From NCBI GenBank assembly GCA_041664925.1, contig JBAYJV010000002.1, positions 200,302 through 264,301 of the forward strand: DNA of 64,000 bases. The letters run 5' to 3'. Each line of letters opens with the position of its first letter. The first letter of the stretch is position 1. Below are positions 5,020 to 58,451 of this stretch, one piece after another. A program made the position numbers and the translations under genes. This stretch comes from Minisyncoccota bacterium (GTDB lineage: Bacteria > Patescibacteriota > Minisyncoccia > JBAYJV01). Below the pieces are notes generated by a model. The model was not told the DNA's origin. It did no database searches and was given only the letters and a program-made list of their open reading frames with translations.

Positions 5020-6855
5020 ATGACAAATGAAAGAAAAACCGAAATAATCACAAGAGAACACTTTTCTAAATTTTTGGATTCTGTTTATATTGAAGAACAA
5101 CGCTCAGATAATCCAAAAATTGATAAGTTATTAAAAACAGCCTCAAAAAAAGGCGGTGGAAAAGGTTATCCTGAGTTTATTATTAGCTATAAAACTAATC
5201 CTAATTTATTGATTGTTGTTGAATGTAAGGCAGATGTAATAAAACACGAAAGTAAAGATCGTGATAAATATTCAGAGTTTGCAGTTGATGGTGCCTTACT
5301 TTACGCTTCCTATCTATCTAAAGATTTTGATGTTTTAGCAATCGCAGTTAGTGGAGAAACAAAACAATCATTAAGAGTTTCTCATTTTTTGCATTTAAAG
5401 GATGAGAAAAAAGCAACTCCAATTTTCGGAGATAAATTTTTATCCGTTGATGATTATTTGAACGGATATTTAAAAAGTCCTGAAAAATTTAGACAAGATT
5501 ATAATTCGCTTTTAGATTTTACAAAACAACTTAACGAAAAACTACATACTTATAAAATTCTTGAAAGCCAAAGAAGTTTGCTTATTAGCTCAATTTTGAT
5601 TGCTTTAGAAAATACCGCCTTCAAAAGGTCTTATGCTTCGCATAAAAAACCAGAAAATCTTGCTGTTTCACTTATTCAAACAGTTTCCGATGAATTAGAA
5701 AGTGCAAATATTACAGGAAAAAAACTTGAAAATCTAAACACTCAATTTAGTTTTATTAAAACAGATACTTCTTTGTCAAAAAAAGAAAATGTTTTGAAAG
5801 AAATTATTGACGAGATCGATGAAAACATAAATGCTTTTATTAAAACTCATAAATACTTTGATGTTTTAGGTCAGCTTTATATTGAATTTTTGAGATATGC
5901 AAACAGCGACAAAGGTTTGGGAATTGTTTTAACGCCTCCACATATTACAGAACTTTTTGCTGATTTAGCACAAGTCAATAAAAACTCTATTGCTTATGAT
6001 AATTGTACTGGAACAGGTGGGTTTTTGATTAGTGCGATGAAAAAAATGGTTGCAGATGCAAAAGGCGATGAAACAAAAATTAAAGAAATTAAAGCAAAGC
6101 AGCTTATCGGAACAGAGTATCAATCGCATATTTTCGCTTTAGCAGTTTCAAATATGTATATCCACCAAGACGGAAAAACAAATATCATAAATGGCAGTTG
6201 TTTTGACGAAGAAGTTATTGAAGAGGTAAAAGCAAAAAAGCCGACAGTTGGATTTTTAAATCCGCCTTACAAGTCAAACAAAAAAACGGATACCGACGAA
6301 TTAGAATTTATTTTGAATAATTTAGAGTGTTTAGTTGACGGCGGAACTTGCGTTGCGATTGTCCCAATGCAAAGTGTTTTAGCGATAAGTGGCAAAGTTT
6401 TAGAATTAAAAAAGAAACTTCTTGAAAAACACACTCTACAAGCGGTTTTATCGATGCCAGATGAATTATTTCTTAATTCAAAAGTCGGTGTTGTTTCTTG
6501 TGTCATAGTTTTTACAGCACACAGACCGCACCCAAATCACAAAGAAACATACTTTGGTTATTACAAAGATGACGGTTTTGTTAAAAGAAAAAACAAGGGA
6601 AGAATTGACGCTTATGGTAAGTGGCAAGAAATAAAAGAGAAATGGCTTGCAAATTTTGAAAACAGAAAAAATGAAGCTGGATTTAGTGTTAATCAAATAA
6701 TTACTGCCGATATGGAATGGGCAGCGGAAGCCTACATGGAAACAGATTATTCAAATTTAAAAGATGAAAACTTTGAAGACACTATTTTAAACTATGTAAC
6801 CTTTTTGCATAGCAATAAACTTTTAGATAAAAATCAGGACTATGGCAATGAATAA
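5020..6855 (+). CDS. Type IIB (BcgI-like) restriction-modification subunit A: N-terminal PD-(D/E)xK endonuclease fused to N6-adenine DNA methyltransferase
   Basis: N-terminal nuclease core LLIVVECKAD. MTase motif I DNCTGTGGFL and motif IV NPPY (FLNPPYKS). No helicase domain. 14-bp overlap with the downstream specificity gene. Confidence 0.7.
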   Translation: MTNERKTEIITREHFSKFLDSVYIEEQRSDNPKIDKLLKTASKKGGGKGYPEFIISYKTNPNLLIVVECKADVIKHESKDRDKYSEFAVDGALLYASYLSKDFDVLAIAVSGETKQSLRVSHFLHLKDEKKATPIFGDKFLSVDDYLNGYLKSPEKFRQDYNSLLDFTKQLNEKLHTYKILESQRSLLISSILIALENTAFKRSYASHKKPENLAVSLIQTVSDELESANITGKKLENLNTQFSFIKTDTSLSKKENVLKEIIDEIDENINAFIKTHKYFDVLGQLYIEFLRYANSDKGLGIVLTPPHITELFADLAQVNKNSIAYDNCTGTGGFLISAMKKMVADAKGDETKIKEIKAKQLIGTEYQSHIFALAVSNMYIHQDGKTNIINGSCFDEEVIEEVKAKKPTVGFLNPPYKSNKKTDTDELEFILNNLECLVDGGTCVAIVPMQSVLAISGKVLELKKKLLEKHTLQAVLSMPDELFLNSKVGVVSCVIVFTAHRPHPNHKETYFGYYKDDGFVKRKNKGRIDAYGKWQEIKEKWLANFENRKNEAGFSVNQIITADMEWAAEAYMETDYSNLKDENFEDTILNYVTFLHSNKLLDKNQDYGNE

Positions 6856-49287: not shown

Positions 49288-50451
49288 ATGAAAGTTTATT
49301 TTGATAATGCTGCGACCACCAAAGTTGATTCAAGGGTTTTTGAGGCAATGAAGCCCTATTTTTCTGATATTTACGGTAACGCTTCAAGTCTTCATGGTTT
49401 TGGCTTGTCGGCAAAACAAGCGCTTGAAGAAGCAAGAGAAGTGATTGCTCGAAAAATTAACGCCAGACATAATGAAATCATTTTTACATCGGGCGCGACC
49501 GAGGCTGATAATTTGGCAATCCGAGGAGTGGCTTATAAAAATAACCACTTAGGCAATCATATCATTACTACAAAAATAGAACATCCGGCCGTATTGGAGA
49601 GTTGTCGTTTTCTTGAAACCCAAGGTTTTAAAATAACATATTTATCAGTTGATCGAGAAGGGTTCGTTAATTTAGAAGAATTAAAGAGGTCGCTTGGCGA
49701 GAAAACTATTTTAGTGTCAATTATTTTTGCTAATAATGAAATTGGAATAATTCAGCCAATAAAAGAAATTGGCAAGATTATAAAAAATTGGAACGAAAAA
49801 CACAATTCTAAAATCATTTTTCATTCAGATGCAGTTCAGGCATTTACCAAAATAGACATCAATGTTAATGATTTGAATCTCGACTTACTCTCAATTTCTT
49901 CTCATAAGATTTATGGCCCCAAAGGGATTGGCGCGCTCTATGTGAAAGAGGGAACAAAGATTGAAAAAATTGCTCATGGCGGTCATCACGAGTATAATTT
50001 AAGACCGGGAACAGAAAATGTGACTAGTGCAGTCGGCTTTGCTAAAGCATTAGAATTATTTAATCCAAAAAACTACGAAGCAGTAAAATCTTTAAGAGCT
50101 TACCTAATTAAAGAAGTATTGAAAAATATTCCTGACTCGTACTTGAATGGACCGCTGGCCGAAAATGTTCTTCCTAATATTGCCAATTTTATTTTTAAGG
50201 GTGCTGAAGGCGAAGCAATAATGCTTTTACTTGATAAAGAAGGCATCGCTGTTTCCACAGGATCAGCTTGCGCATCACACTCGCTTGAACCAAGCTATGT
50301 CCTTTTGGCGCTTGGTGTTCCTAAAGAAGAAGCTCACGGATCTATTCGTGTTTCTCTTGGCCTAGAAAATAAAAAAGAAGAAGTTGATTATACAGTAAAA
50401 GTTTTTAAGAAAGTGATAAAGAGGCTCAGGGATATCAATCCTCTAAGGTAA
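49288..50451 (+). CDS. iscS: Cysteine desulfurase
   Basis: PLP-lysine motif SISSHKIYGPKGIGALYV; active-site Cys loop SGSACASHS. Confidence 0.9.
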   Translation: MKVYFDNAATTKVDSRVFEAMKPYFSDIYGNASSLHGFGLSAKQALEEAREVIARKINARHNEIIFTSGATEADNLAIRGVAYKNNHLGNHIITTKIEHPAVLESCRFLETQGFKITYLSVDREGFVNLEELKRSLGEKTILVSIIFANNEIGIIQPIKEIGKIIKNWNEKHNSKIIFHSDAVQAFTKIDINVNDLNLDLLSISSHKIYGPKGIGALYVKEGTKIEKIAHGGHHEYNLRPGTENVTSAVGFAKALELFNPKNYEAVKSLRAYLIKEVLKNIPDSYLNGPLAENVLPNIANFIFKGAEGEAIMLLLDKEGIAVSTGSACASHSLEPSYVLLALGVPKEEAHGSIRVSLGLENKKEEVDYTVKVFKKVIKRLRDINPLR

Positions 50452-50475
50452 TTTTTAACTTTAAATTTTAAACTT

Positions 50476-50859
50476 TTGTTAATGTACACAAATAAAGTAT
50501 TAGAACATTTCTACGACCCACATAACTATGGTCGTATGAAAAATCCCGACGGTGTCGGTGAAGTTGGCAATCCTTCTTGCGGGGATGTTTTGCGTCTTTA
50601 TATAAAAGTTAAAAATGACAAAATCATAGATATTAAATTTGAAACATTGGGATGCGCCGCCGCGATTGCAGTTTCTTCAATGACTACTGATATGGTTATG
50701 GGAAAGACATTAAACGAAGCCTTAAAAATAAAAAAGAAAGATATTGCTGATGAGTTAGGCGGACTTCCTGAAATAAAAATGCATTGTTCAAATTTAGCAG
50801 AAGAAGCATTGAAATTGGCAATTGAAGATTACCAAAAGAAAGTTAAAGATAAAAAATAA
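50476..50859 (+). CDS. iscU: Fe-S cluster assembly scaffold
   Basis: Three conserved Cys (GNPSCGD, GCAAAIAVSS, HCSNLA); probable true start MYTNKV at 50482. Confidence 0.85.
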   Translation: MLMYTNKVLEHFYDPHNYGRMKNPDGVGEVGNPSCGDVLRLYIKVKNDKIIDIKFETLGCAAAIAVSSMTTDMVMGKTLNEALKIKKKDIADELGGLPEIKMHCSNLAEEALKLAIEDYQKKVKDKK

Positions 50860-50872
50860 AATATAAAAAATT

Positions 50873-51058
50873 ATGAAAATTAATATTGACAAAGAAAAGT
50901 GTATCGGTTGCGGGAGTTGCGAATTTAACTGTCCTGATGTTTTTGAAATAAAAGATGGTAAGGCTAATATAAAAGAAAAGGTTGACTTTGAAAAAAACAA
51001 AGATTGCATAGAATCTGCCATTCAAAATTGTCCGGTGGTCGCGATTGAAGAAGAATAA
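50873..51058 (+). CDS. 4Fe-4S ferredoxin (single cluster)
   Basis: CIGCGSCEFNCP ... C-terminal CP motif. Confidence 0.7.
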   Translation: MKINIDKEKCIGCGSCEFNCPDVFEIKDGKANIKEKVDFEKNKDCIESAIQNCPVVAIEEE

Positions 51059-51110
51059 AAATACTTTACAAGTATTTTTGACGGGAGAATAACTTATAAT
51101 ACATGAATTT

Positions 51111-51626
51111 ATGAACATCTATTGCAAGCTTGCTAAGCAAGCGATTGAGAATTATATCAAAAAACAAGAAATTTTAGATGTTCCCCAGAAACTGCCCGCA
51201 GAATTTAATAAGAAAGCGGGCATTTTTGTCACAATTTATAATGGAAAAGAATTACGAGGATGCATTGGAACATATCAGCCAACAAAACAAAACCTAGCAA
51301 AAGAAATTATTGACAACGCCATTTCCGCAGCAACCAATGACTGGCGATTTGGCCCAATTACAAAAGAAGAATTACCTGAACTTTCCTATGAAGTATCTGT
51401 TTTGGAAAAACCTAAACAAATAGAAGATATTGGAAAATTAGATCCAAAGAAGTTTGGCATTATTGTTCAAGGCATTAATACTAGAAAATCAGCCTTGCTT
51501 TTGCCCGATCTTGATGGTCTTGATACTATAGAAAAACAGTTATCGGCTTGCTGCCAAAAAGCTAATATTGACCCCGCGCAAGAGCAAATAGCAATTTTTA
51601 GATTTCAAACAGAAAAATACATATAA
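51111..51626 (+). CDS. AMMECR1-domain protein (AmmeMemoRadiSam system protein A)
   Basis: Conserved LRGCIGTYQP motif. Confidence 0.8.
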   Translation: MNIYCKLAKQAIENYIKKQEILDVPQKLPAEFNKKAGIFVTIYNGKELRGCIGTYQPTKQNLAKEIIDNAISAATNDWRFGPITKEELPELSYEVSVLEKPKQIEDIGKLDPKKFGIIVQGINTRKSALLLPDLDGLDTIEKQLSACCQKANIDPAQEQIAIFRFQTEKYI

Positions 51627-51690
51627 AGATAAAAAGTTAAAAATAAAATATAAAAATCTTTGTATTTTATCTTTCATATTTTATACCGTT

Positions 51691-52713
51691 ATGAAAGAGG
51701 CTATCCTATATAAAAAACTCAAGAATGACCAGGTTCAATGCAACACTTGCAATCATCGTTGTGTTATAAAAGATGGCGATCACGGTGTTTGCGGTGTCAG
51801 AAAAAATGAAAAAGGCAAACTCATTTGTCTTGTTTACGGAAGAACTCCGGCTATCAATATTGATCCCGTAGAAAAGAAACCATTATTTCATTTTTTACCA
51901 GGTTCATCGGTATTATCTTTTGGAACTTTTGGTTGCAATTTTTCCTGTTCATTTTGTCAAAACTGGACCCTCTCTCAACCGCCAAAAGAAAAGTTTTTTT
52001 GGCATGATATTGATCTGGGGAAAAATGCGCTTCCTGCTAAAATTGTTTCTGAAGCAATCAAGCAAGAATGTCAAAGCATTGCTTATACTTACAATGAACC
52101 AACTGTTTTTTTAGAATATGCTTATGAAACTATGAAAATTGCTCGTGATGCAGGCATTAAAAACATTTGGGTTTCAAACGGTTATATGTCTTATGAAACA
52201 TTGGAATTTATTCTTCCTTATCTTGATGCTATTAATATTGATTTAAAGTCATTTTCTGAAAATTTTTATAATAAATTTTGCGGAGCCAAACTGGTTCCTG
52301 TTTTAGAAAATATTAAGAAAATAAAAAAGGCTGGCGTCTGGGTTGAATTAACGACACTTTTAATCCCAAATGAAAATGATTCTGAAAAAGAAATAAAAGA
52401 TATCGCCAATTTTATTTATTCTGAAGTTGGCAAAGAAACTCCTTGGCACATATCAAGGTTTTATCCGGCCTACAAAATGCTTGAGGTAAAACCAACTGAA
52501 TCAAAAACGATTGAAAAAGCGATTAAAATTGGCAAAGAAATTGGACTCAAGTATGTTTATGTTGGAAATCTTCCTGGATCTGCTTTTGAAAATACGCCCT
52601 GTCCTCACTGCCAAAAAGTCGTCATTGAAAGACTTGGTTATATCGTTCGCAGATTGGATAGAGATGGTATTTGCCCTTATTGCAAGACAAAAATTGATTT
52701 AATTTTGAAATGA
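51691..52713 (+). CDS. AmmeMemoRadiSam system radical SAM enzyme
   Basis: CxxxCxxC (GCNFSCSFCQNW); C-terminal Cys pair CPHC...CPYC. Confidence 0.8.
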   Translation: MKEAILYKKLKNDQVQCNTCNHRCVIKDGDHGVCGVRKNEKGKLICLVYGRTPAINIDPVEKKPLFHFLPGSSVLSFGTFGCNFSCSFCQNWTLSQPPKEKFFWHDIDLGKNALPAKIVSEAIKQECQSIAYTYNEPTVFLEYAYETMKIARDAGIKNIWVSNGYMSYETLEFILPYLDAINIDLKSFSENFYNKFCGAKLVPVLENIKKIKKAGVWVELTTLLIPNENDSEKEIKDIANFIYSEVGKETPWHISRFYPAYKMLEVKPTESKTIEKAIKIGKEIGLKYVYVGNLPGSAFENTPCPHCQKVVIERLGYIVRRLDRDGICPYCKTKIDLILK

Positions 52714-52734
52714 TTTACAATTGCACTACAAACT

Positions 52735-53544
52735 ATGATTAAATTTGCAGCAATTTGCCCACACCCCCCAATAATCATTCCAACTATTGGCAAGTCTCAA
52801 ACCTCAAAAGCTCAAGCCACGGTTGAGGCAATGAGAAAATTGACAATCAATTTAAAGCGTATCAGGAAAACTGATAAAGTTCTTGTAATTTCCCCCCATC
52901 TGCCAATAACTTGGGATGCGTTTACTCTTTATTATGAAGACCCTTATGAAGAAACATTAAAGGGGAATTTTGGTGATTTTGGCGATCCGGATATTTCTTT
53001 TGAATTTCAAGGAGATAAAAAAACCGTCGAAGATTTGAAAATTCTTGGTGGCCCGATTTTTCCCATTATTGGTACAACGATTCGTTATCTTGATCATGGA
53101 ACTCTTGTGCCCCTTTATTATCTTTGGAGTAAAGGAGAGCATAAAACGCCACTTATTCCAATGTCATTTTGTTCGCTCCCGCTCAAAGATCATTATCGTT
53201 TTGGTCAATTTCTAGGCGAATATTTGAAACAAGATAAAAATACTTGGACTATTGTTGCTTCTGCTGATCTTTCACATAGATTGGCAAGTTTTGCTCCTGA
53301 AGGATATAGTCCTAGGGCTCAAGAATTTGATAAACTGCTCGTTGAATATATTGAAAAAAAAGATATTAAAAAGCTTTTAAATATGGATCCTGAATTAATT
53401 TCTGAGGCAGCGGAGTGCGGATTGCGTTCGATTGTTATTCTTTTGGGAATCGTCTCAACTTTCAATTGGAAAGCGAAAATTCTTTCCTACGAAGCGCCGT
53501 TTGGAGTAGGATATCTTGTTTCCGAACTAAAGCTCGGAAATTAA
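52735..53544 (+). CDS. MEMO1-family protein (AmmeMemoRadiSam system protein B)
   Basis: ICPHPP N-terminus; DLSHR metal-binding motif typical of the Memo/extradiol-dioxygenase-like fold. Confidence 0.75.
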   Translation: MIKFAAICPHPPIIIPTIGKSQTSKAQATVEAMRKLTINLKRIRKTDKVLVISPHLPITWDAFTLYYEDPYEETLKGNFGDFGDPDISFEFQGDKKTVEDLKILGGPIFPIIGTTIRYLDHGTLVPLYYLWSKGEHKTPLIPMSFCSLPLKDHYRFGQFLGEYLKQDKNTWTIVASADLSHRLASFAPEGYSPRAQEFDKLLVEYIEKKDIKKLLNMDPELISEAAECGLRSIVILLGIVSTFNWKAKILSYEAPFGVGYLVSELKLGN

Positions 53545-53600
53545 TTTTTCCGCCCTAGGCGGACCAGCCTTGGGCTGGCAATTATCAACATAATTAATGT

Positions 53601-53730
53601 TATTGAAGTCGGACTTCAATAATTTTTTATTGTCATTCTGAGTCCTTCGATTTTTTCAGGATAAACTCCGTGAAGAATCTCAGAAAATACACGAGATCCT
53701 TCCCTCGCCTACGGCGGGTCAGGATGACAG
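53601..53730. mobile_element. MITE-like element, family 2 copy 1
   Basis: Palindrome TTGAAGTCGGACTTCAA, then TIR TTATTGTCATTCTGAG ... GGTCAGGATGACAG. Conserved core AGGATAAACTCCGTGAAGAATCTCAGAAAATACACGAGATCCTTC. Confidence 0.55.
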
Positions 53731-53745
53731 ATTGTACCAAAACCA

Positions 53746-53945
53746 TTGACTTTTAATAATAACTATGATATGATGACTAAAGTTGAATTAGTTCTTTAAA
53801 ATATTTTTGTTGGCAGCACACTGTGGCCTGTAGGCTGGACTTCAAAGTCCTCAGGCCCAGTCTGCTGTCAACAAAGAGAAGGACAAAAAACCTCAACGCC
53901 TTCCGCCTCAACAAGTCGAGGTCAACGTGACAGCAGGAGGACAAT
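53746..53945 (+). promoter_or_regulatory. Promoter (TTGACT-N17-TATGAT) plus conserved structured 5' leader, paralog 1
   Basis: Leader stem TTGTTGGCAGCAC...GTCTGCTGTCAACAA. Conserved AGAAGGACAAAAAACCTCAAC and GTGACAGCAGGAGGA abutting the SD. Confidence 0.5.
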
Positions 53946-54656
53946 ATGTCCAAGACGAAGCAGGTAGTACGGTTCTCGGTGAAAAGAATCAATGCAGAAA
54001 AAAACATATTTTGGAAAGGTATTATTAAGTTTATACATTCAGGCCGTGGGAATCGTTGTGAATTGATTGTAATCAATGATCCTCCGCTGCCACATCTTGA
54101 TGTTACTTACATGGAAGAACGCAATGTGGTCCTACAGAGAATCATTCGGAATTTCCCGGCCGAACTTGTAAAAGACACTCTGGAATACCCATATTCGCCA
54201 ACATCCGTTATGTATGGCGACTTGAGGGTTAAAATCGATTTCACTGGATTGATCGAAGTTATTGGTTCTCTTCTAGATAGCATGATGGGGCCAGAATACG
54301 AGATAGCTTTCCTCAATTATGGAGAAGAATATGCCGACGGCAAAACTATCGACGAAACCCTTAGGCAAAAACTTCGTCGCCGAAGTTATCGGCTTTGCCA
54401 TTTGACTGCAGTTGGAGACCATAATGCATGGAAACATGAAATTTCCAGTATGGGACTAACGCCGGAAGAGGCGGCAGAAAGGATAGGAGTAAACATCGAG
54501 GGACTTGTTAGTAATAATGTCTATTTGGTTTATGTGCCAATTGGAAACTTAGACAAAGTTCTTATCGGACTCGATGAATGGGCAGCACAGAGAGGAATTT
54601 CACGTTTTAGGATTCAAGACGAACTTGTTCTTGTTGAAACAACTAAGAAAGATTAG
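53946..54656 (+). CDS. Hypothetical protein (leader-bearing paralog 1)
   Basis: SD AGGAGG; 165-nt structured leader; terminator 54668-54697; N-terminal VVRFSVKRI. Confidence 0.5.
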   Translation: MSKTKQVVRFSVKRINAEKNIFWKGIIKFIHSGRGNRCELIVINDPPLPHLDVTYMEERNVVLQRIIRNFPAELVKDTLEYPYSPTSVMYGDLRVKIDFTGLIEVIGSLLDSMMGPEYEIAFLNYGEEYADGKTIDETLRQKLRRRSYRLCHLTAVGDHNAWKHEISSMGLTPEEAAERIGVNIEGLVSNNVYLVYVPIGNLDKVLIGLDEWAAQRGISRFRIQDELVLVETTKKD

Positions 54657-54734
54657 TTCTAAGCTGAGTCCGCAGATGTAGTTCTGCGGACTTTTTTTAT
54701 TTAGTGTAGATGTCGGACACCTACACCAAATAAT

Positions 54735-54915
54735 TTGACTTTTAATAAATTTAGTATTAGGATAATGAAAGAATCGTTCTTTAAAAATTTTGTTGACAGC
54801 GCCGTGAAATTAATTTTTTGACTTTATGGCGCTGTCAACAAAGCAAGGGTAAAAAAACCTTCATCACCCTTCACCCCAGCAAGCCGGGGTTGTCGTGACA
54901 GCGAAGGAGAAGTAA
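54735..54915 (+). promoter_or_regulatory. Promoter (TTGACT-N16/17-TAGGAT) plus homologous 5' leader, paralog 2
   Basis: Leader stem TTGTTGACAGCGCC...GGCGCTGTCAACAA. Conserved AAGGGTAAAAAAACCTTCATC and GTGACAGCGAAGGAGA. Confidence 0.5.
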
Positions 54916-55707
54916 ATGGCAAAAAAGGTCGGCAGGGATCCAGGAAGAACGGTAACTCAGAAAGTAAGGTTTCGTGTGTCAATTCTTACTAGGCCGACAC
55001 AATCTGATCCAATTCCCATTGAATGGGATGGTCAAGTTATCATTAAAAAATCTTGTGGAACACATTGTATATCAATTACCCTAGAACCAAATCCTAGCGA
55101 AATTGTTATGAAACTGGTCGCTGCAAGATTAAACCTGCTTGGCCATCTTCTTACTTCTAATTTTGAAGTCAAAAAACACGAACAAGAGTCATATTACATA
55201 ACAGGCACGTTTTATTTATCTACAAGTTTTAGGTTTTTTATTGATGCTTGTTATAGAACTTTCTGTGAAGAAATTCCTCAAACAAATAAATGGCCACATC
55301 ATTGGCTTGACTGGAACCCTCGCAATCTAAGCGTCGAGGAATTGCTTAGAAATGGATTGCCCCTCGCCAAAGATATCGAAGAAACATATCGCAAAGTAAC
55401 TTATGTTCTCTGCTTAAAAAGCTACATACAGGACAGCGCTGCTCCTCATCGCACAATTTCAAGACGGTGGAATCTTAATGCTCAGAACGATCAAGAATTG
55501 CAAGATGACCTTGGAAATGCTTTTGGAGTAAGAATAAAAAGTTATTGTAAAAGCGATGGAATAGCCTATTGTGGAGTCGAAATCCTTCCGGGAGATCCAA
55601 TGAGAATTATTCCTGAATTTTCCGGTTGGGCGTTAAGCGCAGGTTGGGATTGGGATAAGCTCCTTAAGGACAAAGAATTGATCCTTTGGAGAGTTGATCA
55701 AGAATAA
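54916..55707 (+). CDS. Hypothetical protein (leader-bearing paralog 2)
   Basis: SD AAGGAG; homologous 145-nt leader; N-terminal KVRFRVSIL; terminator 55721-55753. Confidence 0.5.
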   Translation: MAKKVGRDPGRTVTQKVRFRVSILTRPTQSDPIPIEWDGQVIIKKSCGTHCISITLEPNPSEIVMKLVAARLNLLGHLLTSNFEVKKHEQESYYITGTFYLSTSFRFFIDACYRTFCEEIPQTNKWPHHWLDWNPRNLSVEELLRNGLPLAKDIEETYRKVTYVLCLKSYIQDSAAPHRTISRRWNLNAQNDQELQDDLGNAFGVRIKSYCKSDGIAYCGVEILPGDPMRIIPEFSGWALSAGWDWDKLLKDKELILWRVDQE

Positions 55708-55766
55708 TCTTTAAACGTTACCCCGTACATAAGTTATGTGCGGGGATTTTTTTGTTTTAATCATAA

Positions 55767-55934
55767 ATTGACAGAAGTCCGACTTCTGTCAATTTTTATT
55801 GTCATTCTGACCCTGTACTGTATGGTACAGAGGAAGAATCTCAGAGAATACACAGGATCCTTCGTTGGTTCAATGGATTCGATAGGCTCACCACAGGCAA
55901 GTTCACCACAAGTCACACTCAGGATGACAATAAA
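55767..55934. mobile_element. MITE-like element, family 2 copy 2
   Basis: Palindrome TTGACAGAAGTCCGACTTCTGTCAA, TIR TTATTGTCATTCTGACC ... CTCAGGATGACAATAAA, core GAAGAATCTCAGAGAATACACAGGATCCTTC. Confidence 0.55.
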
Positions 55935-56124
55935 TATTTGTGTAGGTGTCCGACATCTACACAAAAATGGAAAAACCCCGCACCACATTAGGTGCGAGGT
56001 CCTCATGAAACTAATAACTCATTTTTTTAATAAAAAACTCGTTAAAGTTTCATGTGACTTGACAAACAGGTAAAATAGGAATAGAATGTTGCTAGATTAT
56101 TAATTTGACATTTTTGATACTTAT

Positions 56125-57912
56125 ATGAAGAAAATTATCACTTTTTTAAGTCTAATTGCGATTCTAGCAGGCGTCTTTTTGACAGTTGAAGCGATTAGGG
56201 GAACTATTACTACTCCTCAAAATCAAATCAACGAAGAAAGCGCTTATTCGGTTACAAGAAAAGATATCGCCCAAAAAATCACCCTAAGCGGTGAAGTCAA
56301 AGAAAGTGAAAGCCAGGCGAGCGATCAATCTTTTGATATTGCGGGAAAAATTGAAGATATCTTTGTTAAAGAAGGTGATGTTGTAAAAAAGAATGATGTT
56401 TTGGCAACTATTTCAGCCAACTCGACTCTTCTTGAAAAAGAAAGAGAATTGGCAAGAATAGCAGTTCAGCAAGCTCAAGCCAATCTTAATAAAGCCATTG
56501 CCACTCCCAGCACACAAGAAATTAAGTATTGGGATCAATCAGTTGTTGACGAAGCCAAAAATTATTTTAATCAAACTCGCGCCAATGGCGATGCAAAGAT
56601 TGCTCAAGCTCAAAATCAAGTTAATTCAATTCAAGATGAATTAAATCTTGTTAATAATACAATTGCAGGTGCTGGTCAAAATTATTCGAGCGATTCGACA
56701 TCGTTGAAATCATCAATTCAAGGAAGCTTGATTGCTAATTATTTCGTTTTAGATAAAGCCATGTGGGCTCATGATAGAATTCAGAAAATATATTTCCCAA
56801 ACAATGATCAAATTGGCCTTAGGGTAAGAGAAAAACAAACCGATGCTTTTGATAAATATTATGTAGCAAAATGGTATATGGACAATCAAATCTCAAAGAA
56901 TTTTCCAGCTCCAGATTGGGCAATCACTGACTGTTTAGAATACACAAAACAGGCTTTGGAAAAATTGTCTATCGCTTATCAAACAACCAACGAAGCTTTT
57001 AATGATGCTTTTTATGCCCCAAGATTGTTAGCAGAAGACAGAGACACTATTGATAATGCCCGAAGAGACATTACTAAAAGTTTAGCGTCAATCACAAATT
57101 CACAAGAACAATGGACTAATAGAAATGGTGTCTCCTTAGATAATTCTTCTAAAAGCGATCTTATTCAAAGAAAAACAGCTCTGGAAAATTCTCTTAGAGA
57201 TGCCACAAATAATTTAAATCAAGTTAAATCTCAGGCCCAAGAAGCGCTAAACAAAGCCGATGCGAATCTCAAGGATTCTTATATTAGAGCGTTAAAAACT
57301 AAGACTATCAATAATCCAAAAAATACAGCATCTCTTGAAACAATCTTAAAACAAGCTCAAGAAAAATATAATCAACTTTTATCAGAAAAGACTTCAACTA
57401 TTAAACTTTATGCTAATATTGACGGTATCGTGTCTGATGTTTTGACTACTAAAGGAACATGGATTCAGGCAAAATCTCCAATTATAAAAATAGGCCAAAA
57501 AGGCGGATTGACCATAGAATCCGATTTGCAAGATAAGGATGTCAATCTTTCCGATGAAGTTTCTATCAGTTCTGAAAAGTATGAAGGCATCACATGGAAG
57601 GGGATTGTGATAAATATTACTGATGGAAAAGCGACAATTAGTTTTTCTGATTGCATTAATGATGATGCCGTTTGTTCCAATAAATTGTCTTCTGGAGATG
57701 TTGTTAGTCTTGAAATAAAAATAAAGGAAAAGAAAAATGCCGTTGTGGTTCCAAAAAATTATATTATTGAAAAAGAAGGTAAATCCTTTGTTCAAACAAA
57801 ATTAGACAAAGAAATCGTTTTAAGAGAAATAAGAACAGGGATTGTTAATGGAGAATATATTGAAGCTCTTGAAGGTGTTAGTGAAGGAGATATAATTTAT
57901 CTTCAAAAATAA
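56125..57912 (+). CDS. HlyD-family membrane-fusion (periplasmic adaptor) protein, orphan
   Basis: N-terminal TM, long coiled-coil Q/N/A-rich middle, C-terminal beta-barrel/lipoyl-like VVPKNYII...GEYIEALEGVSEGDII. Confidence 0.6.
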   Translation: MKKIITFLSLIAILAGVFLTVEAIRGTITTPQNQINEESAYSVTRKDIAQKITLSGEVKESESQASDQSFDIAGKIEDIFVKEGDVVKKNDVLATISANSTLLEKERELARIAVQQAQANLNKAIATPSTQEIKYWDQSVVDEAKNYFNQTRANGDAKIAQAQNQVNSIQDELNLVNNTIAGAGQNYSSDSTSLKSSIQGSLIANYFVLDKAMWAHDRIQKIYFPNNDQIGLRVREKQTDAFDKYYVAKWYMDNQISKNFPAPDWAITDCLEYTKQALEKLSIAYQTTNEAFNDAFYAPRLLAEDRDTIDNARRDITKSLASITNSQEQWTNRNGVSLDNSSKSDLIQRKTALENSLRDATNNLNQVKSQAQEALNKADANLKDSYIRALKTKTINNPKNTASLETILKQAQEKYNQLLSEKTSTIKLYANIDGIVSDVLTTKGTWIQAKSPIIKIGQKGGLTIESDLQDKDVNLSDEVSISSEKYEGITWKGIVINITDGKATISFSDCINDDAVCSNKLSSGDVVSLEIKIKEKKNAVVVPKNYIIEKEGKSFVQTKLDKEIVLREIRTGIVNGEYIEALEGVSEGDIIYLQK

Positions 57913-57989
57913 ATAAAATTATTTATTAATAACTTGAAAAAATCCTGTCTCCTGTAGGCAGGATTTTTGTTTGTGTCTTGATTTAGTGT

Positions 57990-58451
57990 TTGAGAAAATT
58001 ATATAATATAGTTATGAATCCAGAAATTACAATTAAAGATGTTTCCAAGGATCGAGTGATTTGCGTTCAAGGTGAAGTTTTTTCGGAATCAAAAGCGATG
58101 AATCTGGTTAATCAGATTTTGGTTTGGCTGATCGAAAAAGGCTTGGCGATTTCTGATCTGCCAGTTGTTGTTGTCAATAAGGATAGGAGTTTTGAAGTCG
58201 GTGTTCCCATAAAAGAAGCTCGTATTCAAGAAACAAAAGAATATAAAATCAAGCAATTAGAAGCTCATCGCATGGGTTCTTTTTTTCACAGAGAGACAGA
58301 AAAGCCGTTATCGTTGTCTGAAGATTTTCTTAAAAAACAATTGCAATATGAAGGTTTCCAAATTCTCGAACCACATCGCTATGTCTTGCATCCCAACCCT
58401 GAAAAACCAGAAATACCTTTAGTGGAAATACAGATACCGATACATAAGTAA
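57990..58451 (+). CDS. Hypothetical protein (possible GyrI-like effector-binding domain)
   Basis: Weak resemblance to the GyrI-like fold; probable true start MNPEITIKD at 58014. Confidence 0.35.
   Translation: MRKLYNIVMNPEITIKDVSKDRVICVQGEVFSESKAMNLVNQILVWLIEKGLAISDLPVVVVNKDRSFEVGVPIKEARIQETKEYKIKQLEAHRMGSFFHRETEKPLSLSEDFLKKQLQYEGFQILEPHRYVLHPNPEKPEIPLVEIQIPIHK

Follow-up and report, generated by a model that had tools for sequence, protein, structure and literature searches.

The closest described counterparts of the element considered here are translational riboswitches, autogenous translational operators, processed mRNA leaders, and the attC cassettes of integrons. The purine riboswitch contains a three-way-junction aptamer; a competitor strand that lies upstream of the aptamer and forms the more stable helix is atypical of riboswitches. 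Autogenous translational operators include ribosomal-protein leaders, operators of the phage T4 gene 32/RegA type, and MS2 coat-protein operators. Leaders processed by ribonuclease III (RNase III), such as that of E. coli pnp, belong here too, as do type I toxin mRNAs such as hok and tisB, in which translation requires 5' processing and refolding. The attC sites lie 3' of promoterless open reading frames (ORFs) with an integron integrase nearby, and their consensus order is R''(RYYYAAC)...R'(GTTRRRY). The element itself is a structured 5' leader that occurs twice in a 64-kb stretch of DNA (the window, in whose positions all coordinates are given). The NCBI name of a protein identical to that of coding sequence (CDS) 2 places the host as a metagenome-assembled genome (MAG) of Candidatus Paceibacterota, an uncultured ultrasmall bacterium. 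The leaders belong to two complete units, at 53746-54656 and 54735-55707, each consisting of a promoter, the leader, a Shine-Dalgarno (SD) sequence and ATG, a CDS, and a terminator-like hairpin. The leader is a previously undescribed, very rare RNA of the structured two-state 5' leader type and is most likely a two-state translational control element.

A first-pass annotation of this DNA had described two paralogous expression units with homologous structured leaders, and this description is borne out. Over ~265 alignment columns, the upstream regions of the two units have a mean column identity of 76%. The predicted fold of each leader is far more stable than those of its dinucleotide shuffles (z = -5.35 and -5.17), and none of 200 shuffles equalled it. 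A covariance model of the leader (R1) found exactly two sense-strand copies in the window, at 169.8 bits (E 3.9e-35) and 146.5 bits; the remaining matches scored at most 20 bits, except for the antisense image of the palindromic hairpin P1. Contigs of relatives and an exact-pattern metagenome scan brought the collection to 12 distinct leader copies from ~9 metagenome or MAG contigs (the window, L003, L004, L009, L016, L017, L026, L027, and one JGI contig without DNA). R1 also picks up the two most divergent leaders, those of L026 (78 bits) and L027 (46 bits), which the exact pattern missed, and a further candidate from the metagenome scan, L019, was discarded as a chance match. Leaders and proteins sort into the same subtypes, namely 1a (unit 1 of the window), 1b, and 2 (unit 2). 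Known RNA families do not explain the leaders. The 4227 covariance models of Rfam 15 gave 0 matches in the whole window at gathering thresholds. At E<=10 within 53500-56100, the leaders were overlapped only by chance-level matches to microRNA precursors and others (14-21 bits against gathering thresholds of 40-111), and the best match, trpB at 25 bits, lay outside the leaders.

The RNA would read, from 5' to 3', as an invariant element (GUUCUUUAAAA), a long hairpin (P1), a hairpin with an A-rich CCU loop (P2), a variable hairpin (P3), the sequence UGACAGC, and the SD. P1 has 23 consensus pairs, and P2 has 5-6 bp with a 15-16-nucleotide (nt) A-rich loop containing CCU. These three helices are supported by RNAalifold on nine leaders (alignment A3) and by pair counting in a 12-copy model-fitted alignment (A6). 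Together they comprise 32 pairs, of which 15 show double changes, and 93.6% of 357 cells are paired. None of 500 shuffles matched the observed values, and slid partners gave 38-56% pairing. The shuffle control does not preserve phylogeny; therefore, the number of different sequences that form each helix is the more robust argument. P2 is built from five stem sequences (GAAGG/CCUUC, AAGGGU/ACCCUU, GGGAAG/CUUCUC, GAGA/UCUC, and GAGGG/CCCUC), and at least eight different sequences keep the P3 hairpin. In the lower part of P1, the 3' strand (GCUGUCAACAAAG) is almost invariant and the 5' strand drifts by transitions that preserve G.U pairs (UUGGUAGUGCUAU, UUGAUAGCAA, and others). These transitions argue for pairing of the sense-strand RNA, because a complementary strand would have A.C mismatches at the same places.

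The long stem and the conserved blocks of the first-pass annotation are real, and they now have structural identities. The block AGRAAGGRYAAAAAACCTYMAY is the 5' strand and loop of P2, and the block GTGACAGCRRAGGAG is a downstream element together with the SD. The 3' strand of lower P1, called the switch strand here, reads GCTGTCAACAAAG in 11 of 12 copies and GCUGUUGACCAAG in L027. The 5' element GUUCUUU is kept in 10 of the 11 copies of A6 that cover it, L027 being different and L016 being truncated at its 5' end; candidate partners for the GUUCUUUAAAA element were tested and none was consistent. The leader thus shows compensatory changes in P1, P2, and P3 across 12 copies, as well as a position between promoter and start codon, as expected of a structured cis-regulatory 5' leader. 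By comparative sequence analysis, the leaders are confirmed as conserved structured RNAs that presumably act in cis. The outcomes that the first-pass annotation had named as refuting it did not occur, since further copies and covariation were found and Rfam offers no explanation.

A second helix competes with P1. In all 12 copies, the 7-nt downstream element can pair with the core of the switch strand. The resulting helix, alt-P1, has 8 bp, of which 95 of 96 cells are paired (99%), with three covarying pairs; slid controls gave 16-69%. Its eighth pair (columns 95-189) uses the first SD base (A53935 in unit 1) and is CG in five copies, UA in five, and UG in one. In L027, a switch strand of GCUGUUG faces a downstream element of CAACAGC, which amounts to two adjacent compensatory changes (pairs 101-182 and 102-181). 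Since G102 has no partner in the P1 of L027, the change at G102-C181 compensates in alt-P1 alone. The L026 element, UGGCAGU, keeps the pairing by means of two G.U pairs. Columns 96-102 pair either with columns 38-44 (P1) or with columns 181-187 (alt-P1). In other words, alt-P1 and lower P1 are mutually exclusive because they use the same nucleotides, and both of these helices sharing one strand are maintained, with few independent events behind alt-P1.

Folding of the 3' part of the leader alone gives a three-way junction of alt-P1, P2, and P3 as the minimum-free-energy (MFE) structure in 7 of 11 leaders. Forcing alt-P1 in the full leader costs 0 to 21 kcal/mol (MFE) or 0.5 to 17 kcal/mol (ensemble energy), because the P1 apex survives in the alternative state. 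The P1 hairpin alone is by far the most stable element, at -29 to -46 kcal/mol. In one natural leader (L009:1066-1265), the alternative state is itself the MFE structure. An extension of alt-P1 by 3 bp into the SD is possible in subtypes 1a and 1b, where the alternative state lowers the predicted unpaired probability of the SD from 0.33-0.99 to 0.08-0.77. Furthermore, in 3'-part folds of subtype 1a, a small hairpin (GGACAATATGTCC, 53939-53951) can cover the AUG. The alternative state therefore looks OFF in the models of subtypes 1a and 1b. The complementarity of GCTGTCA and TGACAGC had been proposed earlier to sequester the SD. The pairing itself holds and has covariation behind it; for the sequestration, the in silico result is clear in subtype 1 only. 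Control is not by transcription attenuation, because no U-run terminator occurs in the leader.

Other pairings and reading frames in the leader were also considered. For an SD-sequestering H-type pseudoknot of preQ1-II/SAM-II-like logic, the CCUC, CCUUC, or UUCUUC of the P2 loop is complementary to the SD, with shuffle fractions of 0.016-0.043 in four comparisons and 0.22-0.39 in two. For a fourU/ROSE-like RNA thermometer, pairing of the 5' UUCUUU with the SD was worth -3 to -7 kcal/mol in subtypes 1a and 2 and +0.2 kcal/mol in 1b, and showed no covariation. Both the P2-loop:SD pseudoknot and the 5'-GUUCUUU:SD pairing have weak energies and lack subtype specificity. A 5'-terminal AAAGAA/UUCUUU hairpin was dropped because only some copies have one. 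An upstream ORF in P1 (UUG UUG ...) was rejected because it lacks an SD and its stop position is not conserved. TTGACT at 54816, in the P1 apex of unit 2, was rejected as an internal promoter because a -10 is missing and L003 does not share it. L027 has peculiarities of its own. Its leader is ~100 nt longer at the 5' end, where four GGTTCTY repeats and a fragment resembling a miniature inverted-repeat transposable element (MITE) occur (~740-830). In L027 and the assemblies L028 and L029, the AUG of the leader (L027:983) and the long ORF P0011 differ in frame by one base, in an A-rich run (CCAAAGAAAACG); the sequence of L027 708-1739 is common to these three assemblies.

How do the genes behind the leaders compare with the leaders themselves? 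Between the window and L003, the Memo, radical SAM, and HlyD-like genes share 85-89% DNA identity. In unit 1 of the same pair, the leader shares 91% identity and the CDS 59% of its nucleotides. The loss is uneven: the C-terminal half of CDS 1 is 85-93% identical to its L003 ortholog, and the N-terminal half (~53950-54300 against L003 5500-5860) is only 25-45% identical and effectively unalignable, which suggests a domain replacement or extreme diversification. Between the paralogous units, leaders share 56-66% identity, CDS DNA 33-43%, and proteins 13-22%. By these comparisons, conservation of the leader is close to that of a housekeeping gene, and the proteins evolve much faster.

The earlier view of the two proteins as divergent cargo that shares only a V(V)RF(S/R)V motif does not hold. 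BLASTP found no significant match between the proteins of CDS 1 and CDS 2. However, profile-profile comparison by hhalign aligned subtypes 1a and 2 with a probability of 96% (E 4e-9, 216 columns), and subtypes 1a and 1b aligned with a probability of 86% (E 4.9e-6, 135 columns). The proteins are colinear. Judged by these profiles, they are remote paralogs of one orphan family, and whole units (promoter, leader, gene, and terminator) were duplicated. The family is small: a search of 5.8 billion sequences gave two cluster relatives for protein 1 and five (63-100% identity) for protein 2, and the family profile finds six cluster representatives among 1.84 billion. It has no match, or noise only, in Pfam, PADLOC, PHROGs, and NCBIfam, and none in PDB sequence profiles, and none of these collections recognised an RNA-binding domain. 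Confidence in the AlphaFold models is low to moderate (pLDDT, the predicted local distance difference test, 49.9 and 62.5), and a Foldseek comparison of the models with PDB and BFVD gave nothing at E<=0.001. By the order of secondary structures, the models look like two alpha/beta halves.

All copies of the leader lie at one syntenic locus of Candidatus Paceibacterota, between Memo and the HlyD-like gene, ahead of this one protein family. The order is AMMECR1, radical SAM, Memo, one or two units and, on contigs extending far enough, usually a HlyD-like gene of ~595 amino acids; the units are downstream of Memo on every contig long enough to display neighbours. The content of the locus varies among genomes, being 1a+2 in the window and L003, 1b+2 in L009, 1a+1b in L017, and 2 alone in L004. 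The window, ~116 kb of related loci, and the metagenome and genome pattern scans yielded no leader copy outside this locus or ahead of a different gene family. An exact-match pattern gave no true match in 185,579 species-representative genomes, only two chance matches inside unrelated coding regions, and a viral-contig scan gave four chance matches only, also inside such regions.

The units also carry signals for their own transcription, and the promoter-like sites ahead of both leaders resemble those of sigma-70. A promoter-like site occurs at the same position upstream of every leader copy, and an SD and AUG occur downstream of every copy. This conserved position is a better argument for the promoters than the consensus scan, which backs them only weakly because the 8 promoter-like sites found in the region are not above the shuffled expectation of 6.3. 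Transcription of unit 1 would start near 53780. Terminator-like hairpins are in excess, with 9 found against 1.9 expected. The first-pass annotation had given both units a common promoter, TTGACTTTTAATAA. This is correct for the present genome and not in general, as subtype-1 units elsewhere have CTTGCATTTTTAAAA. The -35 region of unit 1 (ACCAAAACCATTGACTTTTAATAA; 53736-53759 against 54725-54748) matches the subtype-2 promoter in this genome, and this likeness may reflect local conversion between the units.

Taken together, these findings favour, with modest confidence, an explanation in which each unit is an independently transcribed gene with a ~170-nt, lineage-restricted, two-state cis-regulatory 5' UTR (untranslated region). 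In state A, the 3' strand of lower P1 (GCUGUCA...) would pair with the P1 5' strand, leaving the downstream element and the SD free of this helix. In state B, GCUGUCA would pair with the downstream element to form the alt-P1/P2/P3 three-way junction, stacked under the P1 apex, with the alt-P1 helix ending on the first SD base. The choice between A and B would govern the initiation of translation, and perhaps the stability of the mRNA, for a protein that is tightly controlled and evolves fast. What could drive the choice? The encoded protein, acting autogenously on its own leader, is one candidate effector. The other is a processing event in the long P1 duplex, after which the switch strand could refold as it does in the 3'-part folds. 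Since only one orphan family of one clade carries the motif, a lineage-specific factor would rank above a universal metabolite. Duplication of whole units, followed by selection for the RNA fold, would have kept the leaders alike while the coding regions diverged.

Several points weigh against this explanation. P1 is more stable than the alternative in 10 of 11 leaders, by 5-21 kcal/mol, and alt-P1 may need help forming. About three independent events support alt-P1, namely the change between subtypes 1 and 2, L027 (two pairs), and the L026 wobbles. The predicted effect of alt-P1 on SD accessibility is a decrease in subtypes 1a and 1b and an increase in subtype 2. Because of these opposite shifts, no uniform ON/OFF logic is demonstrated. 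Furthermore, interchangeable pyrimidine blocks in the leader (the P2 3' strand, the P2 loop, and the P3 5' strand) could pair with the SD, and for both reasons the ON and OFF states are not assigned with confidence. The pairings of the P2 loop and the 5' element with the SD are weak and not subtype-specific, and the cross-subtype matrix of the P2 loop is not diagonal. Co-transcription of leader and gene, and the start site, are deduced from promoter-like sites only. Gene conversion between units in the promoter region could account for part of the likeness of the leaders within a genome. Finally, the protein models are of low confidence and lack a significant fold match.

A static structured 5' UTR without a switch, which would stabilise the mRNA or serve as an RNase target (for example, as a site for RNase III or a fold that protects the 5' end), is an unlikely alternative. 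The complementarity of the downstream element would then be a by-product of internal duplication of the P1 5' strand, which the element does resemble in sequence. The dominance of P1, as the most stable element and the MFE state in all leaders except one, fits such a structure, as does the inconsistent effect of alt-P1 on SD accessibility between subtypes. However, alt-P1 is kept through two-sided changes, one of them compensatory for alt-P1 alone, the downstream element is conserved like the switch strand amid otherwise variable sequence, and the alternative state is the MFE structure in one leader. It is distinctly less probable that the leader is a small-molecule riboswitch, with the alt-P1/P2/P3 junction as a metabolite or ion aptamer and the P1 5' strand as the competing strand of the expression platform. 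Here the competitor strand precedes the aptamer in transcription and makes the stronger helix, no Rfam aptamer matches, the motif accompanies only an orphan, fast-evolving family that does not look metabolic, and its range is very narrow (one locus, one clade, ~9 contigs), with no recurrence across lineages. These observations have to be set against a three-way junction beside the SD whose junction and loop nucleotides are conserved (ACAAAG and the A-rich P2 loop), mutually exclusive helices, and an ensemble free-energy difference that ligand binding could partly cover. A self-contained RNA-protein module of a new kind is speculative and somewhat harder still to credit. In such a module, the fast-evolving protein (possibly of a double beta-alpha-beta-beta-alpha-beta fold) would bind its own leader hairpins. 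P1/alt-P1 would be a sensor that releases or silences a conflict effector, be it for phage defence or for host interaction, and the setting would be a hypervariable hotspot, bracketed by MITEs, of an ultrasmall episymbiont. The hypervariable N-terminal domain would act as the target recogniser.

Could the conserved sequence act as DNA? Operator sites, or attC-like recombination sites that delimit exchangeable cassettes at a hypervariable locus, are very improbable. Pairing is kept via G.U wobbles on the sense strand only, P2 and P3 covary though they are not palindromic repeats of a box, and the GTTG...CAAC order is opposite to that of attC. Scanned predicted proteins between 45.6 and 63.7 kb also include no Pfam integrase, recombinase, or transcription factor family. 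What such a reading does capture is the variable content of the locus among relatives, the apparent swap of the CDS 1 N-terminal half between conserved leader and C-terminal blocks, and the palindromes AAAGAA-N3-TTCTTT and TTGACAGC...GCTGTCAA, which could be operators. The first-pass annotation had further suggested a mobile promoter-leader cassette that spreads to unrelated genes. MITE-like repeats do flank the island, and the -35 region of unit 1 does resemble that of unit 2 in this genome. However, every copy lies at the same locus, none was found elsewhere in the window, in the ~116 kb of related loci, or in the pattern scans, and the downstream proteins are homologous. A mobile cassette is already largely refuted and retains next to no credence.

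The features of the two units and their surroundings are collected in Table 1. The MITE copies reported earlier at both flanks of the island are confirmed. These short, non-coding repeats have 20-23-nt terminal inverted repeats (TIRs; TTTTATTGTCATTCTGA...TCAGGATGACAATAAA) and are the only two copies in the window; the TIR pattern itself occurs 3 times against 0.09 expected. Related GTCATTCTGAGCGTAGCGAAGAATC-type repeats are found at the same intergenic position in L003 (~5170-5250). Short palindromes, GTGTAGATGTCGGACACCTACAC and GAAGTCGGACTTC (the latter at 53605-53617 and 55774-55786), recur between and around the units, and also at the corresponding places in L003, L004, and L009. On the minus strand, where no gene is nearby, a strong terminator-like hairpin (55971-56004; 14 bp, then a T run) separates MITE-like copy B from the HlyD-like gene's promoter.

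Table 1. Coordinates of the two leader-bearing units and the repeats around them.
Feature	Positions	Strand	Remarks
MITE-like copy A	53605-53735		TIRs TTTTATTGTCATTCTGA...TCAGGATGACA; repeat families D2, D3, I3, I4; left edge of island
Putative promoter, unit 1	53746-53774	+	TTGACT, 17 nt, TATGAT, TG before -10; consensus scan, 10/12 matches
Leader 1 (subtype 1a)	53779-53945	+	Whole structured 5' UTR, ~170 nt
Invariant 5' element GTTCTTTAAAA	53791-53801	+	G13-T19 unchanged in A3
P1 lower stem, 5' strand TTTTTGTTGGCAGCA	53804-53818	+	Pairs with 53863-53876; competes with downstream element for switch strand
P1 apical hairpin	53820-53861	+	MFE and constrained folds; compensatory pairs at columns 45-55/85-95; persists in both predicted conformers
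Switch strand TGCTGTCAACAAAG (lower P1 3' strand)	53863-53876	+	Core GCTGTCA, 53864-53870
P2 hairpin	53878-53903	+	GAAGG/CCTTC stem, 16-nt A-rich loop ACAAAAAACCTCAACG; 4/5 pairs with double compensatory changes
P3 hairpin	53906-53921	+	CCTC...GAGG; length and sequence vary
Downstream element TGACAGC (alt-P1 3' strand)	53928-53934	+	Directly 5' of SD
SD, unit 1	53935-53940	+	AGGAGG
CDS 1 (subtype 1a)	53946-54656	+	236 amino acids
Intrinsic terminator, unit 1	54666-54693	+	11-bp stem, then T run
Palindromic spacer GTGTAGATGTCGGACACCTACAC	54700-54729		Inverted copy 55937-55966; inverted repeat I1, 30 nt, 93% complementary
Putative promoter, unit 2	54735-54763	+	TTGACT, 17 nt, TAGGAT; consensus scan; kept in all subtype-2 copies
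Leader 2 (subtype 2)	54767-54915	+	~150 nt
Leader 2, 5' element GTTCTTTAAAA	54776-54786	+
Leader 2, P1 5' strand	54788-54803	+	Long stem with 54828-54843
Leader 2, P1 apex	54804-54827	+
Leader 2, switch strand	54828-54843	+	Core 54831-54837
Leader 2, P2	54845-54871	+
Leader 2, P3	54874-54889	+
Leader 2, downstream element	54896-54902	+
SD, unit 2	54903-54909	+	GAAGGAG
CDS 2 (subtype 2)	54916-55707	+	263 amino acids; NCBI: hypothetical protein WC242_04215, Candidatus Paceibacterota
Intrinsic terminator, unit 2	55721-55745	+	11-bp stem, then T run
MITE-like copy B	55774-55940		Repeat families D2, D3, I5; TIR matches; right edge of island

Upstream of the island (49288-53544), the window carries NifS and NifU genes and the AMMECR1, radical SAM, and Memo trio. 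In syntenic loci, a ferredoxin gene lies between NifU and AMMECR1; its putative counterpart in the window is a 61-amino-acid ORF. Downstream (56125-58451), the HlyD/membrane-fusion-like protein of 595 amino acids has a long central insertion, and a 153-amino-acid protein of the same stretch has a weak, sub-threshold GyrI-like match (17.3 bits against a cutoff of 26). In L026, the island contains instead a PKD-domain gene, a truncated subtype-2-like gene (182 amino acids), and an 80-amino-acid ORF with a sub-threshold match to EAD2, an effector-associated domain (E 0.096).

Regulatory RNAs of Patescibacteria (candidate phyla radiation) appear little described. Full-text searches of the literature returned no description of the leader motif and no native structured regulatory RNAs in Patescibacteria, and a 2024 perspective mentions riboswitches only as possible engineering tools. 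The leader offers a handle on post-transcriptional control of expression in reduced genomes and on the role of an orphan, hypervariable protein family, and, being short, the motif lends itself to direct probing and to reporter assays. Because it is so narrowly distributed, its general importance is limited.

Among described systems, integron attC cassettes share with this locus a variable array of one or two units at a fixed site, each with a conserved imperfect palindrome. Unlike in attC cassettes, the palindrome here is 5' of the ORF in a transcribed leader that bears a promoter, the box order is opposite, the cargo is paralogous, no Pfam-recognisable integrase occurs among the scanned neighbours, and conservation of the wobble type points to RNA. 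The pnp, hok, and tisB leaders provide a different parallel, a long near-perfect 5' hairpin, and removal of the 5' strand here would let the switch strand refold near the SD. However, the proteins encoded here have ~240 amino acids and are not short hydrophobic peptides, and neither an antisense RNA nor a small toxic ORF is present.

The likeness to translational riboswitches and attenuator leaders such as the purine riboswitch lies in a structured 5' UTR whose closing helix abuts the SD with its 3' strand, and in two hairpins in a three-way junction, a competing strand, two exclusive folds, and covarying stems. The leader differs from them in having no Rfam match, in its upstream and stronger competitor strand, and in its confinement to one locus of one clade, before orphan, fast-evolving genes rather than metabolic or transport genes. 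Like autogenous operators, it occurs with one protein family only, places its structure beside the ribosome-binding site, and travels as a subtype with the protein subtype (1a, 1b, and 2), a co-segregation that simple co-inheritance would explain equally well. The exclusive association with one family is the sole hint of an autogenous operator, and an indirect one. The leader differs from these operators in that the family lacks a recognised RNA-binding domain. Thus, the leader combines likenesses to several systems with features that are unusual among them: an upstream and stronger competitor strand, an extremely narrow distribution, and a hypervariable cargo family.

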